Part shown: positions 23,502 through 40,647 of the stretch, piece after piece
How positions within the stretch are numbered: the stretch's first letter is position 1
Layout of the letters: every line of letters begins with the position of its first letter
Assembly (NCBI RefSeq): GCF_058153355.1
Contig: NZ_CM177019.1
Direction: 5' to 3' (one strand)
Length of the DNA: 64,000 nucleotides
Notes under the pieces: model-generated
The model's input: only the letters and a program-made list of their open reading frames with translations
The model's database searches: none
What the model was told of the DNA's origin: nothing
Made by a program: the position numbers and the translations under genes

Positions 23502-23604
23502 TTAATTCGTAAAACGTGCTACCGATCACATTAAGAATTCTCAGCATAGTTGAATTACAGGGAAGTAACATCGGGCGAGTGCCCAGTTCAGCACACTAAT
23601 TCTG

Positions 23605-24504
23605 CTATAAAAAGTGCAGAAACTGACTTAAAGCATAAGAAGGCGTTTCGTTATTACGCCAAAACACACCGACGCTGCCTTTCTGTTCAATCTTTGGCAG
23701 GTTGAGGATCACCAGTTGCCCCTGGCTGGCATAACGTTGCGCCAGGCGTAATGACAAAATAGAGATCATATTGCTGCTTTGTAACAGGTTGGTACTGACG
23801 TTCATCGACGCCGACTCAATCGTGTTTTCTGGCAGCATCACGCCGTGGTCTACCAGCGCATTATCAATGCTGATGCGGATGGGGGTACCTGTCGGCCAGA
23901 CTATCCACCGCCAGTTAGCAAGATCATTCCAGCTGAGGGTGGCGTATTTCGCCAGTGGATGCTCAGGACGGGCGACAAAGCATACCGGCTCGGTGTAGAG
24001 CACGCGATAATTCAGCGGCAGCTGCAACGCGCGACCGCCAATTCGCCCAACCACCACATCGATAGAACCTGCCAACAGATCTTGCAGCAATGGGGTCATC
24101 ACCTTCTCTTCGATATTCAGGTGTAGAGTTGGCATCTCCTTGAGCAAATGCAAAATCGCCTGGGATACGCAGTCAGTGGCGACGGGAGAACAGCCAATTT
24201 TCAGACTGCCGACCAGTCCACCTTGTTTAAAACGGGCCAGTTCATGTTGCGAGCGCTCCATGTCATTGATTAACCGCTGGGCATGTTGCAATAACAATCT
24301 ACCGCCTTCGGTAGGGCGTAACCCTTTGCTGTGCCGCTCAAAGAGTGTGAGGCCGATCTCATCTTCGAGTTGTGACAACCATTTCGACAGCGCAGGCTGG
24401 GTGATATTCATCATCCGCGCGACATGGGTCAGATTGCCCTGTTCACCCAGCGCCACCAGCATTTGCAGGTGATGAAGCTTTAGTTTCTGCGCCCAGTTTG
24501 CCAT
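23605..24504 (-). CDS. mhbR: LysR-family regulator of the 3-hydroxybenzoate/gentisate cluster (MhbR-like)
   Basis: HTH MANWAQKLKLHHLQMLVALGEQGNLTHVARMMNITQPALSKWL; divergent from the catabolic operon; start chosen at the Met preceded by GGAGG. Confidence 0.8.
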   Translation of the reverse strand: MANWAQKLKLHHLQMLVALGEQGNLTHVARMMNITQPALSKWLSQLEDEIGLTLFERHSKGLRPTEGGRLLLQHAQRLINDMERSQHELARFKQGGLVGSLKIGCSPVATDCVSQAILHLLKEMPTLHLNIEEKVMTPLLQDLLAGSIDVVVGRIGGRALQLPLNYRVLYTEPVCFVARPEHPLAKYATLSWNDLANWRWIVWPTGTPIRISIDNALVDHGVMLPENTIESASMNVSTNLLQSSNMISILSLRLAQRYASQGQLVILNLPKIEQKGSVGVFWRNNETPSYALSQFLHFL

Positions 24505-24509
24505 TTGCC

Positions 24510-24525
24510 ATAACCTCCAGGTTAT
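24510..24525. promoter_or_regulatory. Palindromic LysR-type box (ATAACC-N4-GGTTAT) at the mhbR/mhbT divergent promoter
   Basis: ataacctccaggttat, a perfect inverted repeat immediately upstream of the mhbR start. Confidence 0.4.
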
Positions 24526-24630
24526 CTCTCTGCCCGAAATGCCATTGTACATTTCATCTCTTTAATCACAATATCGCAACATACATAAAACAAAAGAAAC
24601 ATCTACCTTACCTGCACTGAGGCATTTACT

Positions 24631-25989
24631 ATGACTCAACGACGTGATTTACAAGCACTGATCGATGCTGCTCCGGTCGGCAAGATGCAGTGGCGCGTTA
24701 TCATCTGCTGTTTTCTGGTGGTAATGCTCGATGGTTTTGACACCGCGGCTATCGGATTTATCGCCCCTGATATTCGCACTCACTGGCAACTCACCGCAGG
24801 CGATCTCGCCCCGCTTTTTGGCGCGGGTCTGCTGGGATTAACCGCAGGCGCACTGCTTTGTGGCCCGTTGTCTGACCGCTTTGGCCGCAAGCGGGTGATT
24901 GAGCTGTGCGTCTTTTTATTTGGCGCGTTAAGTCTCGCCTCTGCGTTTTCACCAGATCTGCAAACGCTGGTATTACTGCGTTTTCTCACAGGGCTTGGGC
25001 TTGGCGGGGCGATGCCGAACACCATCACCATGACCTCGGAGTATCTGCCTGCCCGCCGCCGAGGCGCGCTGGTGACGCTGATGTTTTGCGGCTTTACGCT
25101 GGGTTCGGCGTTTGGCGGGATTGTCAGCGCACAGCTGGTGCCGGTGATTGGCTGGCACGGGATCCTGGTGTTGGGTGGCGTATTACCGCTGATGCTGTTT
25201 GTCGCACTGCTTGTGATTCTTCCGGAATCGCCACGCTGGCAGGTGCGCCGCCAGTTACCACAGGCGGTGATTGCAAAAACTGTCAGCGCCATTACCCGCG
25301 AGCGTTATGTCGATACCCACTTTTATCTCAATGAATCAGCCTCCGTTACAAAAGGCAGCATTCGTCAACTGTTTATGGGACGTCAGTTACCCATTACGTT
25401 GATGTTGTGGGTAGTGTTCTTTATGAGCCTGCTGATTATTTACCTGCTCTCAAGCTGGATGCCAACGCTGTTGAACCATCGCGGCATAGACCTGCAACAC
25501 GCGTCCAGGGTCACCGCCGCGTTCCAGATTGGCGGTACGTTGGGCGCGCTGGCGCTGGGCGTGCTGATGGATAAGTTCAATCCTTTCCGCGTGCTGGCGC
25601 TGAGCTATGCCGTAGGCGCTGTATGCATCGTGATGATTGGCTTAAGCCAGGATGGATTATGGCTGATGGCGCTGGCGATTTTCGGCACCGGCATTGGCAT
25701 TAGCGGATCTCAGGTGGGGTTGAACGCGTTGACCGCAACGCTCTACCCAACGCAAAGCCGCGCCACGGGCGTGAGCTGGTCAAACGCCGTAGGCCGCTGC
25801 GGCGCGATTGTCGGCTCGCTTTCTGGCGGCCTGATGATGGCGATGAATTTCTCTTTCGACACCCTGTTTTTCATTATCGCTGTGCCCGCGGCGATCAGTG
25901 CGGTGATGTTAAGCCTGCTGATCGCCGTGGTTCGCCAGTCGACCTCTGTCCCTGACTCACTGCCTCGCGCAGGCGTTGTGAACGAATAA
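24631..25989 (+). CDS. mhbT: MFS aromatic acid (3-hydroxybenzoate/gentisate) transporter, MhbT-like
   Basis: 452-aa 12-TM MFS ORF with motif [12 protein letters not shown]; first gene of the catabolic operon. Confidence 0.8.
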
Positions 25990-26000
25990 GGAGCATCCTA

Positions 26001-27029
26001 ATGACTGATAACAATCAAAAAAGCCGCGAGCAATTTTATCAGCATATTTCCGGGCAAAACCTGACCCCGCTGTGGGAGTCACTGCACCACCTGGTGCCGA
26101 AAACGCCCAACGCCAACTGTGCGCCAGCGTACTGGAATTATCAGGAGATCCGCCCGCTGCTGCTGGAGAGCGGCAGCCTGATTGGTGCGAAAGAGGCCGT
26201 GCGCCGCGTGCTGGTGCTGGAAAACCCGGCGCTGCGCGGGCAGTCTTCCATTACCGCGACTTTATATGCCGGTTTGCAACTGATCATGCCGGGCGAAGTG
26301 GCACCGAGTCATCGTCATAATCAGTCGGCGCTGCGTTTTATTGTTGAAGGCAAAGGGGCATTTACCGCCGTTGATGGCGAACGCACGCCAATGAATGAGG
26401 GCGATTTTATCCTGACCCCACAATGGCGCTGGCACGATCATGGTAACCCTGGCGACGAACCGGTTATCTGGCTCGATGGGCTGGATCTGCCATTAGTGAA
26501 CACTCTGGGCTGCGGTTTTGCCGAAGATTACCCGGAAGAGCAACAACCGGTAACGCGTAAAGAGGGCGATTATCTGCCGCGTTACGCTGCCAATATGTTG
26601 CCGCTGCGCCATCAGACGGGGAACTCCTCACCGATCTTTAACTATCGTTATGACCGTAGCCGCGAAGTGCTGCACGATTTAACCCGCCTGGGCGATGCCG
26701 ACGAGTGGGATGGCTACAAAATGCGCTATGTCAACCCGGTCACCGGCGGCTATCCGATGCCGTCGATGGGCGCCTTCCTGCAACTGCTACCGAAAGGGTT
26801 CGCTTCCCGCGTGGCGCGTACCACTGACAGCACTATCTACCATGTAGTGGAAGGTAGCGGACAAGTCACCATCGGCAATGAAATCTTCACCTTTAGTGCA
26901 AAAGATATCTTTGTGGTGCCGACCTGGCACGGCGTGTCATTCCAGACTACGCAAGATACCGTTTTATTCAGTTTTTCGGACAGACCGGTACAAGAAGCCC
27001 TGGGGCTGTTCCGCGAAGCGCGTTATTAA
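26001..27029 (+). CDS. mhbD: Gentisate 1,2-dioxygenase (bicupin)
   Basis: 342-aa ORF with cupin His motif ([17 protein letters not shown]...) and two cupin halves. Confidence 0.9.
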
Positions 27030-27044
27030 TTTGGGAGAGAGAAA

Positions 27045-27746
27045 ATGACTCAATATGTATTCGAACCACAAGCGCCCGTTACCGTACCGGTTGTTGGCAG
27101 TGATGAACAATTCCCCGTGCGCCGCGTTTACTGCGTCGGGCGTAACTATGCCGCCCACGCCCGCGAAATGGGCTTTGATCCGGATCGTGAACCCCCCTTC
27201 TTCTTCTGCAAACCAGCAGATGCCGTTGTTCCGGTCGCCGCTGGCGAAACGCTGGCGCTGCCGTATCCGGCGCAGACCGATAACTATCATTACGAAATTG
27301 AACTGGTGGTGGCGATTGGTAAAAAGGGCAGCGATATCCCACTGGAAAAGGCCCATGAATATGTCTGGGGTTATGCCACAGGCCTTGATATGACGCGCCG
27401 GGACCGTCAAATGGAAATGCGTCAGATGGGCCGCCCGTGGGAAATCGGCAAAGCATTTGATCTCTCGGCCCCCATCGCACCGCTGCACAAAGCCAGCGAA
27501 ACCGGCGGTATTGATAACGCACCAATCTGGTTACAGGTAAACGGTGAAGATCACCAGCGCAGCGATATTCGCCATCTCATCTGGTCGGTGAATGAAACCA
27601 TCAGCTACCTGTCAGGCTTCTTTGAGCTGCAACCGGGCGATCTGATCTTCACTGGTACGCCAGAAGGGGTGGGCCCGGTAGTGAAAGGTGATGTGATCAC
27701 GGGCAACGTCGAGGGCTTAACCCCTATCGCGGTGAAGATTGTCTGA
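27045..27746 (+). CDS. mhbH: Fumarylpyruvate hydrolase (FAH family)
   Basis: 233-aa ORF with fumarylacetoacetate-hydrolase-family fold signature (…[15 protein letters not shown]…). Confidence 0.85.
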
Positions 27747-27751
27747 GGTGC

Positions 27752-28399
27752 ATGATGAAGCTGTACAGTTTTTTTAATAGTTCAGCATCGTACCGGGTAC
27801 GCATTGCGCTGGCGCTGAAAGGCATTAATTACCAGACCGAAGGGGTGAATATCCGTATTGGTCAGCAAAATGAACTGGCCTATCGGCGGATGAATCCTGT
27901 CGGGCTGGTGCCGACGCTGCTGACTGACGAGGGCGAGTCACTCGGTCAGTCGCTGGCGATTATTGACTGGCTGGATCGTCACTACCCGCAAGTTCCGCTG
28001 GTGCCGCAGGAAGAACCGGCCCGCAATAAGGTGCTGGAAATTGTCTATGCCATCGCCTGTGATATTCATCCATTGAATAACCTGCGCGTGCTGCGCTACC
28101 TGACCGAAGAGCTGAACGTCAGTGAAGAAGAGAAAAAACGCTGGTATGCGCACTGGATCCAGCAAGGTTTAAGCGCGGTGGAACAGCTACTGCGCCAGAG
28201 CCAGTCGGGGCAATTTTGTGTGGGTGAGACGCCGACGCTGGCAGACTGCTGCCTTGTTCCGCAGTGGGCGAACGCGCTACGTATGAACTGCGATCTGAGT
28301 GGATATCCGCGCTGCAAAGCGGTGTACGACGCCTGCACACAACTGCCAGCGTTCATTGCCGCAGCGCCAGAAAATCAACAAGATAAAATTTCAGCCTGA
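27752..28399 (+). CDS. mhbI: Maleylpyruvate isomerase (zeta-class glutathione S-transferase)
   Basis: 215-aa ORF with GST N-terminal thioredoxin-like start MKLYSFFNSSASYRVRIALALKG. Confidence 0.85.
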   Translation: MMKLYSFFNSSASYRVRIALALKGINYQTEGVNIRIGQQNELAYRRMNPVGLVPTLLTDEGESLGQSLAIIDWLDRHYPQVPLVPQEEPARNKVLEIVYAIACDIHPLNNLRVLRYLTEELNVSEEEKKRWYAHWIQQGLSAVEQLLRQSQSGQFCVGETPTLADCCLVPQWANALRMNCDLSGYPRCKAVYDACTQLPAFIAAAPENQQDKISA

Positions 28400-28413
28400 C
28401 CAGGAGAACCATA

Positions 28414-29607
28414 ATGACTAAAGTGACACGCGCAGTAATTGTGGGAGGCGGGATCGGCGGTGCGGCAACTGCGCTGTCACTGGCCCGCCAGGGGATCAAA
28501 GTGGTGCTGCTGGAAAAGGCGCATGAGATCGGTGAGATTGGCGCAGGTATCCAGTTGGGGCCAAATGCGTTTTCGGCGTTGGATAGTCTTGGTGTTGGCG
28601 AAATCGCCCGCCAACGTGCGGTATTCACCGATCACATCACCATGATGGACGCGGTGAACGCCGAAGAAGTGGTGCGTATTGAAACCGGGCAGGCCTTTCG
28701 TGACCATTTCGGCGGCCCTTACGCGGTGATCCTCCGGGTTGATATTCATGCCTCGGTGTGGGAAGCGGTACTGACGCATCCGGACGTGGAGTATCACACC
28801 TCTACGAATGTCGTGGATATTCGTGAGACGGAAGACGATGTCACCGTTTTCGACGATCGAGGTAATAGCTGGAGCGGCGATATTTTGATTGGCTGTGATG
28901 GCGTGAAGTCAGTGGTGCGCCAGAGCTTATTAGGCGATGCGCCGCGCGTCACCGGTCATGTGGTCTACCGTGCGGTTATCGATTGTGCGGATATGCCGGA
29001 AGATTTACGTATTAATGCGCCGGTATTGTGGGCGGGTCCGCACTGTCACCTGGTACATTATCCTTTGCGCGGCGGCAAGCAGTATAACCTGGTGGTGACA
29101 TTCCACAGCCGCCACCAGGAAGAGTGGGGCGTGAAGGATGGCAGTAAAGAGGAAGTGCTTTCCTATTTTGAAGGCATTCACCCGCGTCCTCGCCAGATGC
29201 TGGATAAACCGACGTCATGGCGACGCTGGTCAACGGCCGATCGTGAACCGGTAGGGAAATGGGGGACTAACCGCATTACGCTGGTGGGCGATGCGGCCCA
29301 TCCGGTGACGCAGTATATGGCACAAGGTGCCTGTATGGCGCTGGAAGATGCAGTAACGCTGGGTAAGGCGCTGGCGCAGTGTGAGGGTGATGCGGCGCAA
29401 GCTTTTGCGCTGTATGAGTCGGTACGTATTCCGCGTACCGCGCGCATCGTCTGGTCGACCCGTGAAATGGGGCGGGTTTATCACGCCGCAGGGGTAGAAC
29501 GTCAGGTACGTAACCTGCTGTGGAAAGGGAAATCGCAGGCAGAGTTTTATCGCGGCATGGAGTGGCTGTACGGCTGGAAAGAAGATAACTGTCTGCAACC
29601 ACGCTGA
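28414..29607 (+). CDS. mhbM: 3-hydroxybenzoate 6-hydroxylase (FAD-dependent monooxygenase)
   Basis: 397-aa ORF with FAD-binding GxGxxG (VIVGGGIGGAATAL) and the DG and GD motifs of flavin hydroxylases. Confidence 0.85.
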   Translation: MTKVTRAVIVGGGIGGAATALSLARQGIKVVLLEKAHEIGEIGAGIQLGPNAFSALDSLGVGEIARQRAVFTDHITMMDAVNAEEVVRIETGQAFRDHFGGPYAVILRVDIHASVWEAVLTHPDVEYHTSTNVVDIRETEDDVTVFDDRGNSWSGDILIGCDGVKSVVRQSLLGDAPRVTGHVVYRAVIDCADMPEDLRINAPVLWAGPHCHLVHYPLRGGKQYNLVVTFHSRHQEEWGVKDGSKEEVLSYFEGIHPRPRQMLDKPTSWRRWSTADREPVGKWGTNRITLVGDAAHPVTQYMAQGACMALEDAVTLGKALAQCEGDAAQAFALYESVRIPRTARIVWSTREMGRVYHAAGVERQVRNLLWKGKSQAEFYRGMEWLYGWKEDNCLQPR

Positions 29608-29638
29608 GTACTTCTTACCCAATCAGGTGCACGGACGG

Positions 29639-29676
29639 TCCCCTCGCCCCTTTGGGGAGAGGGTTAGGGTGAGGGG
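29639..29676. repeat. G/C-tract structured repeat at the junction between the mhb cluster and dusC
   Basis: tcccctcgcccctttggggagagggttagggtgagggg, with nested inverted repeats cccc-ttt-gggg and ccctc...gaggg. Confidence 0.4.
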
Positions 29677-29726
29677 AAAAATCTTGCCCGAATTAATCAG
29701 TAAGTCAGTTTGTCTGCAAACACCAG

Positions 29727-29755
29727 AGGCGCTAACATAGCGCCTCATTTTTTTG
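29727..29755 (+). terminator. Rho-independent terminator after the mhb operon
   Basis: aggcgctaacatagcgcct hairpin followed by cattttttt; lies inside the long ORF-track N-terminal extension of dusC, which argues for the downstream dusC start. Confidence 0.5.
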
Positions 29756-29766
29756 CGGGTGATGAT

Positions 29767-30714
29767 ATGCGTGTGTTACTGGCGCCGATGGAGGGTGTAC
29801 TCGACTCTCTGGTGCGTGAATTGCTGACCGAAGTTAACGACTACGATCTGTGCATCACCGAGTTTGTCCGCGTGGTGGATCAACTGCTGCCGGTAAAAGT
29901 TTTTCATCGCATTTGCCCGGAGCTACAAAACGCCAGCCGAACGCCATCCGGTACGCTGGTGCGCGTGCAATTGCTGGGTCAGTTCCCACAATGGCTGGCA
30001 GAGAACGCCGCCCGTGCGGTGGAGTTAGGTTCCTGGGGTGTGGATCTTAATTGCGGCTGTCCGTCGAAAACGGTTAACGGTAGCGGCGGCGGGGCGACAC
30101 TACTCAAAGATCCTGAACTCATCTACCAGGGTGCAAAAGCGATGCGTGAAGCTGTACCGGCGCATTTGCCCGTCAGTGTGAAAGTGCGTCTGGGCTGGGA
30201 CAGCGGTGAGAAGAAATTTGAAATCGCCGATGCGGTTCAACAGGCTGGCGCTACGGAGTTGGTGGTGCATGGGCGGACAAAAGAGCAGGGGTACCGCGCG
30301 GAGCATATTGACTGGCAGGCGATTGGCGAGATTCGCCAACGGCTGAATATTCCAGTGATTGCCAACGGTGAAATCTGGGACTGGCAGAGCGCGCAACAGT
30401 GTATGGCGATCAGCGGCTGTGACGCGGTGATGATTGGTCGCGGAGCGCTCAATATTCCCAATCTGAGCCGAGTGGTAAAATACAACGAACCGCGAATGCC
30501 GTGGCCGGAGGTGGTTGCTTTGCTACAAAAATATACCCGTCTGGAAAAGCAGGGCGATACCGGGTTATATCACGTTGCGCGGATTAAACAGTGGTTGAGT
30601 TATTTGCGTAAAGAATACGATGAAGCAACAGAATTATTTCAGCATGTTCGGGTGTTGAATAATTCCCCTGATATTGCAAGGGCTATTCAGGCAATTGATA
30701 TCGAGAAACTCTAA
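29767..30714 (+). CDS. dusC: tRNA-dihydrouridine(16) synthase DusC
   Basis: 315-aa product starting [36 protein letters not shown]; TIM-barrel Dus family. Confidence 0.9.
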
Positions 30715-31086
30715 GAAACCATAGTGATGTTTTTTGACAATGTGTTAGCTCTTTATCAATAGGCCGCACGGTTGTTTGGTGGCGTCAAAATCGCCGAGGC
30801 GTTCCCTGAAGGCCGGGGCAGCCCACATGGATGTGGGCTGAGGGCGCGTTTTACAGGGATGTTACCTCGCGCCCGACCCGGTAGCCGTAAGGGATAAGCC
30901 GAGGGCACCGCGCAGCGGCGATTTTGTTCGCCAGAGCCCGGGGGTGCAGGGGGCGGCGGCGACTGGTCGCCCCCTGCGCGCTCCTTGCGCTAGTGATTAT
31001 ATGAAGCAATGCACATGACAGGAGCGCAACAGGATGAGAGACTGAAATATTCTCGTTATTTTCGGATCTGATGACGTTAATTAATT

Positions 31087-31170
31087 TTAAAATATCATCT
31101 TAAATACGCCAGTCACCACCAGTAGTCCAATCAGGAAAATAATCAATACAGCCCAGAGTATAATTTTCAT
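31087..31170 (-). CDS. yohP: Small membrane protein YohP (27 aa)
   Basis: Reverse-strand ORF MKIILWAVLIIFLIGLLVVTGVFKMIF; below the ORF-track size cut-off and read manually. Confidence 0.75.
   Translation of the reverse strand: MKIILWAVLIIFLIGLLVVTGVFKMIF

Positions 31171-40526: not shown

Positions 40527-40647
<121 letters not shown>

Follow-up and report, generated by a model that had tools for sequence, protein, structure and literature searches.

The TRIP1 repeats were listed first by Rudd 1999 and described by Li et al. 2024 (PMC10888264). In the latter study, TRIP1a is located at aqpZ-ybjE (lysO), TRIP1b at putP-ycdN, where it has an internal deletion of 125 bp, TRIP1c 43 bp downstream of yohI (dusC), TRIP1d at alx-sstT, and TRIP1e at copA-ybaP. 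The copies are always found 38-96 bp after a stop codon. There are 0-5 of them per genome, zero only in draft assemblies. Both orientations occur at 1a and 1c, and among 5741 genomes TRIP1c was forward in 2952 and reverse in 2789. The copies also mediate large chromosomal inversions, with 156 rearrangements between them (PMC10888264).

The two "replication risk sequences" (RRS) of Pham, Cox, Goodman et al. (PMC10287960, PMC11194060, 2026 preprint) correspond to TRIP1a and TRIP1c. In K-12, RecA and SSB accumulate on about 2 kb of the lagging-strand template beside each RRS, and these peaks are abolished when the element is deleted (PMC10287960). Pol I, II, and IV halt at the G-quadruplex (G4) of the G-rich strand of the K-12 RRS, and extra copies introduced elsewhere result in new gaps (PMC11194060). 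At least one copy is conditionally essential in K-12. Both could be deleted only with an insH7-8 amplification (200-kb segment), or with inverted or ectopic copies present, and the loss or inversion of both copies alters supercoiling genome-wide (PMC11194060). In single-molecule experiments with a purified replisome, a gap was formed at nearly every encounter with the element in its native orientation and at ~66% of those with the inverted one, in which the C-rich strand is the lagging-strand template; the C strand is thus able to trigger gaps as well (Kusi-Appauh et al. 2026 preprint). Pham et al. proposed that, where the Ter macrodomain has its borders, such transient gaps serve as topological relief valves.

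In this mechanism, as shown in K-12, the fork unwinds the element, and the strand exposed as the lagging-strand template forms a G-quadruplex and stacked GC hairpins. The lagging-strand polymerase is blocked and resumes further downstream, which leaves a single-stranded stretch of up to ~2 kb, a transient gap on which SSB and RecA load. Topological relief at the edge of the Ter macrodomain is the proposed role of these gaps.

The dusC-yohP spacer matches TRIP1c and RRS-dusC

We analyzed a stretch of E. coli DNA of 64 kb, hereafter the window, whose gene order is syntenic with that of K-12. Gene names were taken from the RefSeq record NZ_CP098223.1, which is 100% identical to the window. The region of interest is the spacer between dusC and yohP (30715-31086). 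In the window's strain, a 3-hydroxybenzoate/gentisate cluster is inserted between yohJ and dusC, and the repeat is untouched.

A preliminary description, made from the letters of the window, had presented the spacer as GC-rich, highly structured, and devoid of open reading frames (ORFs) of 60 aa or more. Its account of the composition holds. The spacer has 55.6% GC for a window mean of 51.2%, and this average hides a core with values from 64.1% (30758-31030) to 67.4% (30772-30995) between flanks at ~32%. The ORF list has no ORF of at least 60 aa in 30715-31086, where the longest have 52, 50, and 41 aa, and a Pfam search of these short ORFs gave no match.

By its sequence and its location, the spacer is the known TRIP1c repeat, or RRS-dusC, and we regard it as a rediscovery rather than a new feature. 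The K-12 TRIP1c coordinates (2229122-2229394) map to 30758-31030 of the window. The repeat thus starts at ~30758, with dusC ending at 30714, in agreement with the published distance of 43 bp after the yohI/dusC stop. The identity to the K-12 lysO-aqpZ copy (TRIP1a, 915016-915281) is 93.4%. The RRS-dusC core coincides with the part of the repeat that is conserved in Klebsiella (query 16-229), and the published G4 20-mer is found in it without a mismatch. The features are listed in Table 1.

Table 1. Features of the dusC-yohP spacer and of its flanking genes, in window coordinates
Feature	Coordinates	Strand	Remarks
dusC, tRNA-dihydrouridine(16) synthase	29767..30714	+	Gene upstream of the spacer; ORF list and annotation of NZ_CP098223.1
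AT-rich spacer, dusC stop to repeat	30715..30757	.	33% GC
TRIP1c repeat, 273 bp	30758..31030	+	G-rich strand is +; 98.4-98.6% identical to the K-12 dusC-yohP copy (L007 2103-2437)
RRS-dusC core, 222-bp	30772..30995	+	K-12 deletion "58 to 281 bp downstream of dusC" (PMC11194060)
Outer stem, 5' arm	30776..30784	+	Pairs with 30929-30941; A5 columns 15-23 with 169-181; pairs 19-173 and 23-169 covary
P1, 5' arm, CAAAATCG	30786..30793	+	Pairs with 30919-30926; invariant in 18/18 sequences
Tandem-G.A helix, 5' arm	30794..30800	+	Pairs with 30898-30904; A5 columns 33-39 with 138-144
Hairpin 1, CAGCCCACAT-GG-ATGTGGGCTG, loop C[ATGGAT]G	30819..30840	+	3 covarying pairs; loop invariant in Escherichia and Klebsiella
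Hairpin 2, GGGCGCG...CGCGCCC	30842..30874	+	Loop C[AGGGAT]G at 30854-30861; pairs 88-108 and 93-102 covary
Tandem-G.A helix, 3' arm	30898..30904	+	Pairs with 30794..30800
Small hairpin, CCGC-GCA-GCGG	30908..30918	+	A5 columns 148-158; G-C to A-U in two Klebsiella copies
P1, 3' arm, CGATTTTG	30919..30926	+	Inverted repeat and alignment
Outer stem, 3' arm	30929..30941	+	Pairs with 30776..30784
Published G-quadruplex 20-mer, GGGGGTGCAGGGGGCGGCGG	30940..30959	+	Exact match, unique in the window, chance expectation 0.01; sequence from PMC11194060
Hairpin 3, 12-bp GC stem	30946..30977	+	5' arm with the G-runs of the G4 motif; pairs 186-219, 196-211, and 199-208 covary
Hairpin 4, closed by GCGCTCCT/AGGAGCGC	30978..31027	+	Interior variable; pair 227-262: U-A (9 sequences), C-G (6 sequences)
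AT-rich spacer, repeat to yohP	31031..31086	.	32% GC; weak inter-copy homology to ~31065
yohP, 27-aa small membrane protein	31087..31170	-	Convergent with dusC; ORF list and annotation of NZ_CP098223.1

Our preferred reading, to which we assign a probability of about 0.9, is that the spacer is TRIP1c, that its 222-bp core is RRS-dusC with lagging-strand gapping of the K-12 type, and that the whole fold is selected across Escherichia and Klebsiella. The preliminary description took its own proposals to fall if the region matched a known repeat family, and TRIP1c / RRS-dusC is such a family. Its suggestion of a recombination target came near the mark, since the K-12 element loads RecA (PMC10287960) and the TRIP1 copies mediate inversions (PMC10888264). 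The element was catalogued in 1999 and its function was assigned in 2023-2026. Hence, the spacer counts as explained.

Along the 64 kb of the window, the + strand attains a cumulative GC skew of +0.46. This positive skew points to the + strand as the leading-strand sequence, and thus as the lagging-strand template, as in K-12. From the skew and the synteny with K-12, we infer that the G-rich strand is the lagging-strand template in the window's strain. Extrapolating from K-12, gaps would form there too.

The whole fold is conserved across Escherichia and Klebsiella

The two palindromes quoted in the preliminary description are present. In a scan for inverted repeats, both have arms of 10 nt with 100% complementarity, the first at 30819-30828/30831-30840 and the second at 30946-30955/30968-30977, which puts the latter (30946-30977) one base off the coordinates given initially. 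The scan also revealed a long-range inverted repeat of 16 nt (30786-30801/30911-30926). The region was rightly described as highly structured. Folded as RNA, the + strand has a free energy of -143.7 kcal/mol, to be compared with -117.8 +/- 5.2 in shuffled sequences (z of -5.0), and the - strand has a z of -4.3. When DNA parameters were used on the 224-nt core, the z values were -6.0 for the + strand and -6.3 for the - strand, and none of 200 shuffles was equally stable.

To study the conservation of this fold, we used an alignment (A5) of 18 sequences: 13 distinct copies from Escherichia, namely from E. coli, E. albertii, E. whittamii, and two further Escherichia species, and 5 copies from Klebsiella. 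The refined fold has 77 pairs, which are 98.2% paired across the 18 sequences. Changes on both sides are found in 16 of the 77 pairs, for a mean of 9.7 in shuffles (0/500 shuffles as high), and in 66 cells, for 19.9 in shuffles; these numbers come from few independent lineages, about 5-6 sequence types. When the fold was slid by 1-3 columns as a control, the number of such pairs dropped to 0-4. At least one compensatory pair is present in nine of the 12 helices. For example, both sides have changed in three of the five pairs of the tandem-G.A helix (UA/CG, GC/AU, GC/AU).

The changes in hairpin 3 bear on the published model. There, C-G became A-T twice in B2 strains and G-C became A-T in Klebsiella, and the hairpin was preserved along with the G-runs. 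Such compensation shows selection on the hairpin, including its C-rich arm, which is not predicted by a description based on the G4 only. The two hairpins with ANGGAY loops show a similar upkeep: the variation of the hairpin 2 loop between copies is limited to A-N-GGA-Y. As judged from these substitutions, purifying selection acts across Escherichia and Klebsiella on the complete fold of the G-rich strand, and its target is wider than the G-runs.

One-sided changes resulted in 97 cells with G.U and 9 with A.C when read on the G-rich strand. This suggests that foldability is maintained on the G-rich strand, with the proviso that the structure was derived on that same strand and that the changes come from few lineages. 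Compensatory changes and tolerance of G.T are expected equally for a folded single strand of DNA, and the pattern therefore does not discriminate between RNA and DNA.

Copies, orientation, and distribution

We used megablast to search for the region in complete E. coli genomes and found it in 5425 of the 5426, each of which has 1-8 places (median of 3). The repeat unit shared by the copies corresponds approximately to 30762-31035 of the window, and weaker homology extends out to ~30735 and ~31065. Other copies are found at lysO-aqpZ and alx-sstT, and a truncated one at putP-efeU (TRIP1b). There is also a plasmid-borne copy with an internal deletion. TRIP1d is absent from alx-sstT in K-12, which has a Box C-like repeat instead. 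At the sensitivity of megablast, strain M1/5 has a single TRIP1 copy, which is reversed.

At dusC-yohP and at lysO-aqpZ, the flanking genes are the same and the element points one way or the other, depending on the strain. Between the two orientation alleles, the identity is ~88-91%. Only 3308 of the 5426 genomes have the allele of the K-12 type together with its flanks, in line with the forward and reverse counts of Li et al. In the B2 strain uk_P46212, the G-run motif (GGGGGTGCAGGGGGAGGAGG) is on the strand with negative GC skew, i.e., the leading-strand template. The same may apply to the G strand of TRIP1d, to judge from synteny with K-12. This natural variation complicates a strict model in which the G4 must be on the lagging-strand template. 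The gaps triggered by the C strand in the 2026 preprint largely reconcile this conflict of orientations.

The family extends beyond Escherichia. A BLAST search against plasmid records revealed Klebsiella copies with 83-86% identity, and one Citrobacter record also matched. About 13 places were found in the K. pneumoniae record CP125156.1, which is listed as a plasmid and is in fact a chromosome. We inspected four Klebsiella copies (three from K. pneumoniae, one from K. aerogenes), and they are located at unrelated intergenic sites; one of them is a tandem pair 437 bp apart. With these copies and the natural orientation variants, the family behaves as a dispersed repeat and is more than a pair of elements flanking Ter. 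We also searched 100,044 genomes, one per species, for the exact pattern GTCAAAATCGC-N(100-130)-GCGATTTTG. The true matches were all in Escherichia, next to ~80 chance matches. A restriction to this genus is ruled out by the Klebsiella copies. It was only apparent, because the pattern demands 20 exact bases and the Klebsiella copies differ just outside of it. There was no TRIP1 match in a search of a phage collection. The plasmid matches were all on non-mobilizable records, and some of these records clearly represent chromosomes, or segments of chromosomes, that were deposited as plasmids.

Alternative explanations

Dispersal raises the possibility that the element is a selfish or relict intergenic repeat, akin to MITEs or REPs, and that replication stalling is a by-product of its GC-rich palindromic structure. 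Its traits fit this idea in part. The copy number varies (1-8 places in our data, 0-5 in PMC10888264), both orientations occur at the same locus, and the copies all follow a stop codon at a distance of 38-96 bp. The 13 places of K. pneumoniae CP125156.1 are at unrelated intergenic sites and include a tandem pair, K-12 has a Box C-like repeat at alx-sstT where other strains have TRIP1d, and some copies are truncated (TRIP1b and the internally deleted one on a plasmid). Yet, neither terminal inverted repeats nor target-site duplications are recognisable, there is no associated transposase and no phage match, and the plasmids with matches are non-mobilizable. The one "empty" site that was examined, alx-sstT in K-12, is not a clean one: being filled by another repeat, it offers no readable insertion junction. 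The conditional essentiality of the element in K-12, with its effect on global supercoiling (PMC11194060), and the strong purifying selection on the whole fold and its loops across genera also speak against a by-product. We therefore consider this explanation unlikely. It is even harder to see in the element the remnant of a decayed gene, as the preliminary description had envisaged, and we give this idea practically no weight. It could draw on the ORFs of 41-52 aa inside the element and on an AGGAG-N8-ATG at its 3' end. However, the ORFs have no Pfam match and the substitutions track base-pairing, not codons. In addition, AGGAGCGC makes up the 3' side of a stem that covaries. The ORF that follows the AGGAG has three unconserved codons in the window (within 31031..31086), and ranges from 0 to 27 aa between copies: 3 aa in the window, 9 aa in K-12 TRIP1a, 27 aa in B2 strains, and none in TRIP1d.

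A structured RNA was another proposal of the preliminary description, which recommended a search with covariance models. We considered a more specific version, in which the element would also, or mainly, encode an RNA of the TwoAYGGAY type whose GGA loops bind a dimeric protein such as CsrA, the RNA acting as a sponge or as a module of the 3' UTR. The Rfam model of TwoAYGGAY (RF01731), the only notable match in a permissive search, aligns with the G-rich strand over its full length, with 30.2 bits and an E-value of 0.035 in a 2-kb search, below threshold. Five other full-length TRIP1 copies were scanned, and four of these match on the same strand with 26.1-29.9 bits; this second scan covered seven other loci and gave no match for one full-length copy (L012) nor for the truncated TRIP1b locus (L101). 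All these scores are below the gathering threshold of 43 bits. We also compared a profile of the TRIP1 5' domain with five Psychromonas members of the family using nhmmer, and the result was insignificant (2.6 bits, for 1.0 bits in the top-scoring one of 400 shuffles). The sole ACANGGAYG sites of the 64-kb window, ACAUGGAUG and ACAGGGAUG, are in two hairpins separated by 28 nt, and they resemble the CsrA SELEX consensus, RUACARGGAUGU. The ANGGAY loops stay constant while their stems covary, and G.U is tolerated on the G-rich strand, which is co-directional with dusC in K-12 and in the window with no terminator in between. Binding of CsrA to TwoAYGGAY RNAs was proposed in PMC4333381. Against this, there is neither a sigma-70 promoter nor an intrinsic terminator within or beside the element, strains differ at two loci in the direction of the element with respect to its neighbouring genes, and the tables of the E. 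coli CsrA CLIP-seq study have a "No" for dusC and for ybjE in all of their CLIP columns. A TTGACA at 30736 was considered as a promoter and rejected, as its spacing to any -10-like hexamer is wrong. The sole promoter-like match (31071-31098) is at the yohP end of the spacer and points away. No Rfam family reached its threshold: the matches to AgvB (31004-31064, 22.9 bits for a threshold of 56) and ATPC in a permissive search were treated as chance. Covariation is, as mentioned above, equally expected for single-stranded DNA, and a function at the DNA level was shown experimentally, including with the purified replisome (Kusi-Appauh et al. 2026 preprint). Hence, an RNA role is unsupported by promoter, terminator, conserved ORF, or CsrA CLIP signal, and we hold it to be quite improbable. 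The reading of the spacer as TRIP1c / RRS-dusC, a DNA element, is preferred.

Implications

Our analysis adds three aspects to the published picture of the RRS: the compensatory upkeep of hairpin 3 and of the two ANGGAY hairpins, the many copies in Klebsiella, and the common alleles with the G strand on the leading-strand template. With the whole fold and its two ANGGAY loops visibly under selection, mutants of the loops and of the C-rich arm are predicted to change gap formation or to reveal a binding partner. The dispersed copies of Klebsiella and the two replication orientations in natural E. coli provide tests of the idea of a pair of relief valves flanking Ter. Finally, the resemblance to TwoAYGGAY offers a cheap means of searching for analogous elements outside Enterobacteriaceae.

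Comparison with known systems

REP units are ~35 bp long and Box C elements ~56 bp. Like TRIP1, the REP/BIME and Box C repeats are GC-rich, palindromic, intergenic, usually located just after stop codons, and variable between strains. TRIP1 differs by its length (~270 bp), by having 1-8 copies rather than hundreds, by its multi-helix fold, and by the lack of the REP consensus. The preliminary description was correct in setting the spacer apart from REP units. A REP half-consensus has no match in 30715-31086 and has matches elsewhere in the window, e.g., at 40566-40626. Similarly, the Rfam model of naRNA4, which is REP-derived, has no match in the spacer.

The pilE G4 is a short single G4 that needs a cis sRNA transcript and serves antigenic variation. 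It is not known to be related to TRIP1 in sequence. This G4 of Neisseria gonorrhoeae is the only other bacterial example cited by Pham et al. in which a G-quadruplex induces gaps or nicks as well as recombination. The sRNAs of the CsrB/CsrC type, which have their own promoter and intrinsic terminator, many GGA hairpins, and bind CsrA in vivo, are a different case: the element has no promoter or terminator, has only two ANGGAY loops, and has no CLIP-seq call at dusC or ybjE.

The element shares its architecture with TwoAYGGAY (RF01731, Weinberg et al. 2010), an orphan motif of gut metagenomes, Clostridia, and some gamma-proteobacteria that has large P1 stems. The two have in common a long closing stem (P1), a junction with two adjacent hairpins, an AG linker, terminal loops CAUGGAUG and ACAGGGAU/C, internal tandem G.A pairs, and the presence of multiple copies in the host. 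Tandem G.A pairs in the TwoAYGGAY stem have been noted (PMC4333381). The loops differ in part. Loop 1 (AUGGAU) fits AYGGAY, whereas loop 2 of the window (AGGGAU) is ARGGAY; in other copies it is AAGGAC, AUGGAC, or ACGGAC. TRIP1 also has two further 3' hairpins and the G-run motif, which are outside of the Rfam model. Rows 1-5 of the published TwoAYGGAY alignment are five copies from the genome record of Psychromonas ingrahamii (NC_008709.1), whose loops ACAUGGAUGU and ACAGGGACGU are like those of TRIP1. Given the sub-threshold scores and the failed profile match, TRIP1 resembles TwoAYGGAY in architecture, and membership is not supported by the sequence comparisons. That the 5' domain of TRIP1/RRS, with its two C[ANGGAY]G hairpins and its long tandem-G.A stem, is the same kind of module as TwoAYGGAY is a long shot. 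If it were true, the TwoAYGGAY "RNAs" of Psychromonas, Clostridia, and gut metagenomes would be RRS-like DNA elements that program replication gaps. Or else, the RRS would also be a protein-binding RNA or single-stranded DNA with GGA loops recognised by a dimeric binder such as CsrA.

The comparison with the two published descriptions of the element itself is more straightforward. The window copy agrees with TRIP1 in its locus, in its extent of 273 bp, and in the sites of its paralogues (aqpZ-lysO, putP-efeU, and alx-sstT), with no material difference. It shares with RRS-dusC the 222-bp core and the exact G4 20-mer, and both of its strands are predicted to fold stably as single-stranded DNA.

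Reversed TRIP1c allele and TRIP1 copies in other sequence records

Besides the hairpin listed in the table, the reversed-orientation allele of TRIP1c in B2 strains (loci L003 and L005) has a different DusC C-terminal end, …IDIDKLR* instead of …IDIEKL*. The last residues of the protein being altered, the orientation polymorphism extends into coding sequence.

Copies of the repeat were also found in other sequence records. K. pneumoniae CP125156.1 has 13 TRIP1/RRS-like places in total, including a tandem pair flanked by a mechanosensitive-channel gene and pcaC; the 5.37-Mb record is classed as plasmid sequence, though it evidently represents a chromosome. The 88-kb plasmid pMTY11352_3 carries the chromosomal block poxB-hcr-hcp-lysO-aqpZ-ybjD-ybjX-macA, with its TRIP1a copy included. 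An Escherichia TRIP1 copy was also present in a 583-bp contig (NZ_JABWSY010000051.1, coverage 0.72) labelled 'Bacillus sp. EB106-08-02-XG196', which is almost certainly E. coli contamination in the Bacillus assembly. The left flank of this copy is of the TRIP1a type and the right one of the TRIP1b type, and the contig represents a recombinant junction of the two.

Features and their coordinates (L-handles are compared loci)
Feature	Location	Context
Perfect 12-bp hairpin GATAAGCTGCGA…TCGCAGCTTATC	L003 2778-2830 / L005 (B2 strains)	Overlaps dusC stop codon, reversed-orientation allele
Two tandem TRIP1/RRS-like copies, 437 bp apart	L102 2564-2776 and 3001-3213	K. pneumoniae CP125156.1
TRIP1a copy, ~75 bp missing across hairpins 1 and 2	L006 3972-4165	E. 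coli TUM11352 plasmid pMTY11352_3
yohJ-dusC interval genes	Window about 23600-29607 (L100 1882-7893)	LysR regulator, mhbT, gentisate 1,2-dioxygenase, FAH-family hydrolase, maleylacetoacetate isomerase, 3-hydroxybenzoate 6-monooxygenase
48-bp GC-rich unit containing GGGGAGAGGGTTAGGGTGAGGGG	Window 29632-29678	Between monooxygenase gene and dusC
Spurious small ORFs	Window 29623-29748	Arise from the 48-bp unit
AgvB match	Window 31004-31064 (-)	TRIP1c 3' end and spacer preceding yohP
Inverted REP-type half-sites	Window 40566-40626	CTTATCAGGCCTTC on +, CTTATCCGGCCTAC on -
naRNA4 match	L101 1316-1352	K-12 putP-efeU spacer

Sub-threshold RNA matches and probable REP sites

The sub-threshold Rfam match to the anti-GcvB sRNA AgvB (22.9 bits, threshold 56, E 0.18) was taken as due to chance. 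Another sub-threshold match (28 bits, threshold 59.5), to the REP-derived nucleoid-associated RNA naRNA4, lies about 115 bp from the truncated TRIP1b of K-12 and thus suggests that a REP unit stands beside this copy. The inverted half-sites in the window, probably an ordinary REP/BIME element, served solely as the positive control of the REP search.

Sequences upstream of dusC

The 48-bp unit shows 94% identity to a segment of the repeat which takes up the alx-sstT spacer of K-12, at the site occupied by TRIP1d in other strains, and has the appearance of a Box C repeat. The window strain has catabolic genes between yohJ and dusC, whereas K-12 has only a 239-bp spacer at the same place; these genes therefore look like an inserted 3-hydroxybenzoate/gentisate catabolic island adjoining RRS.
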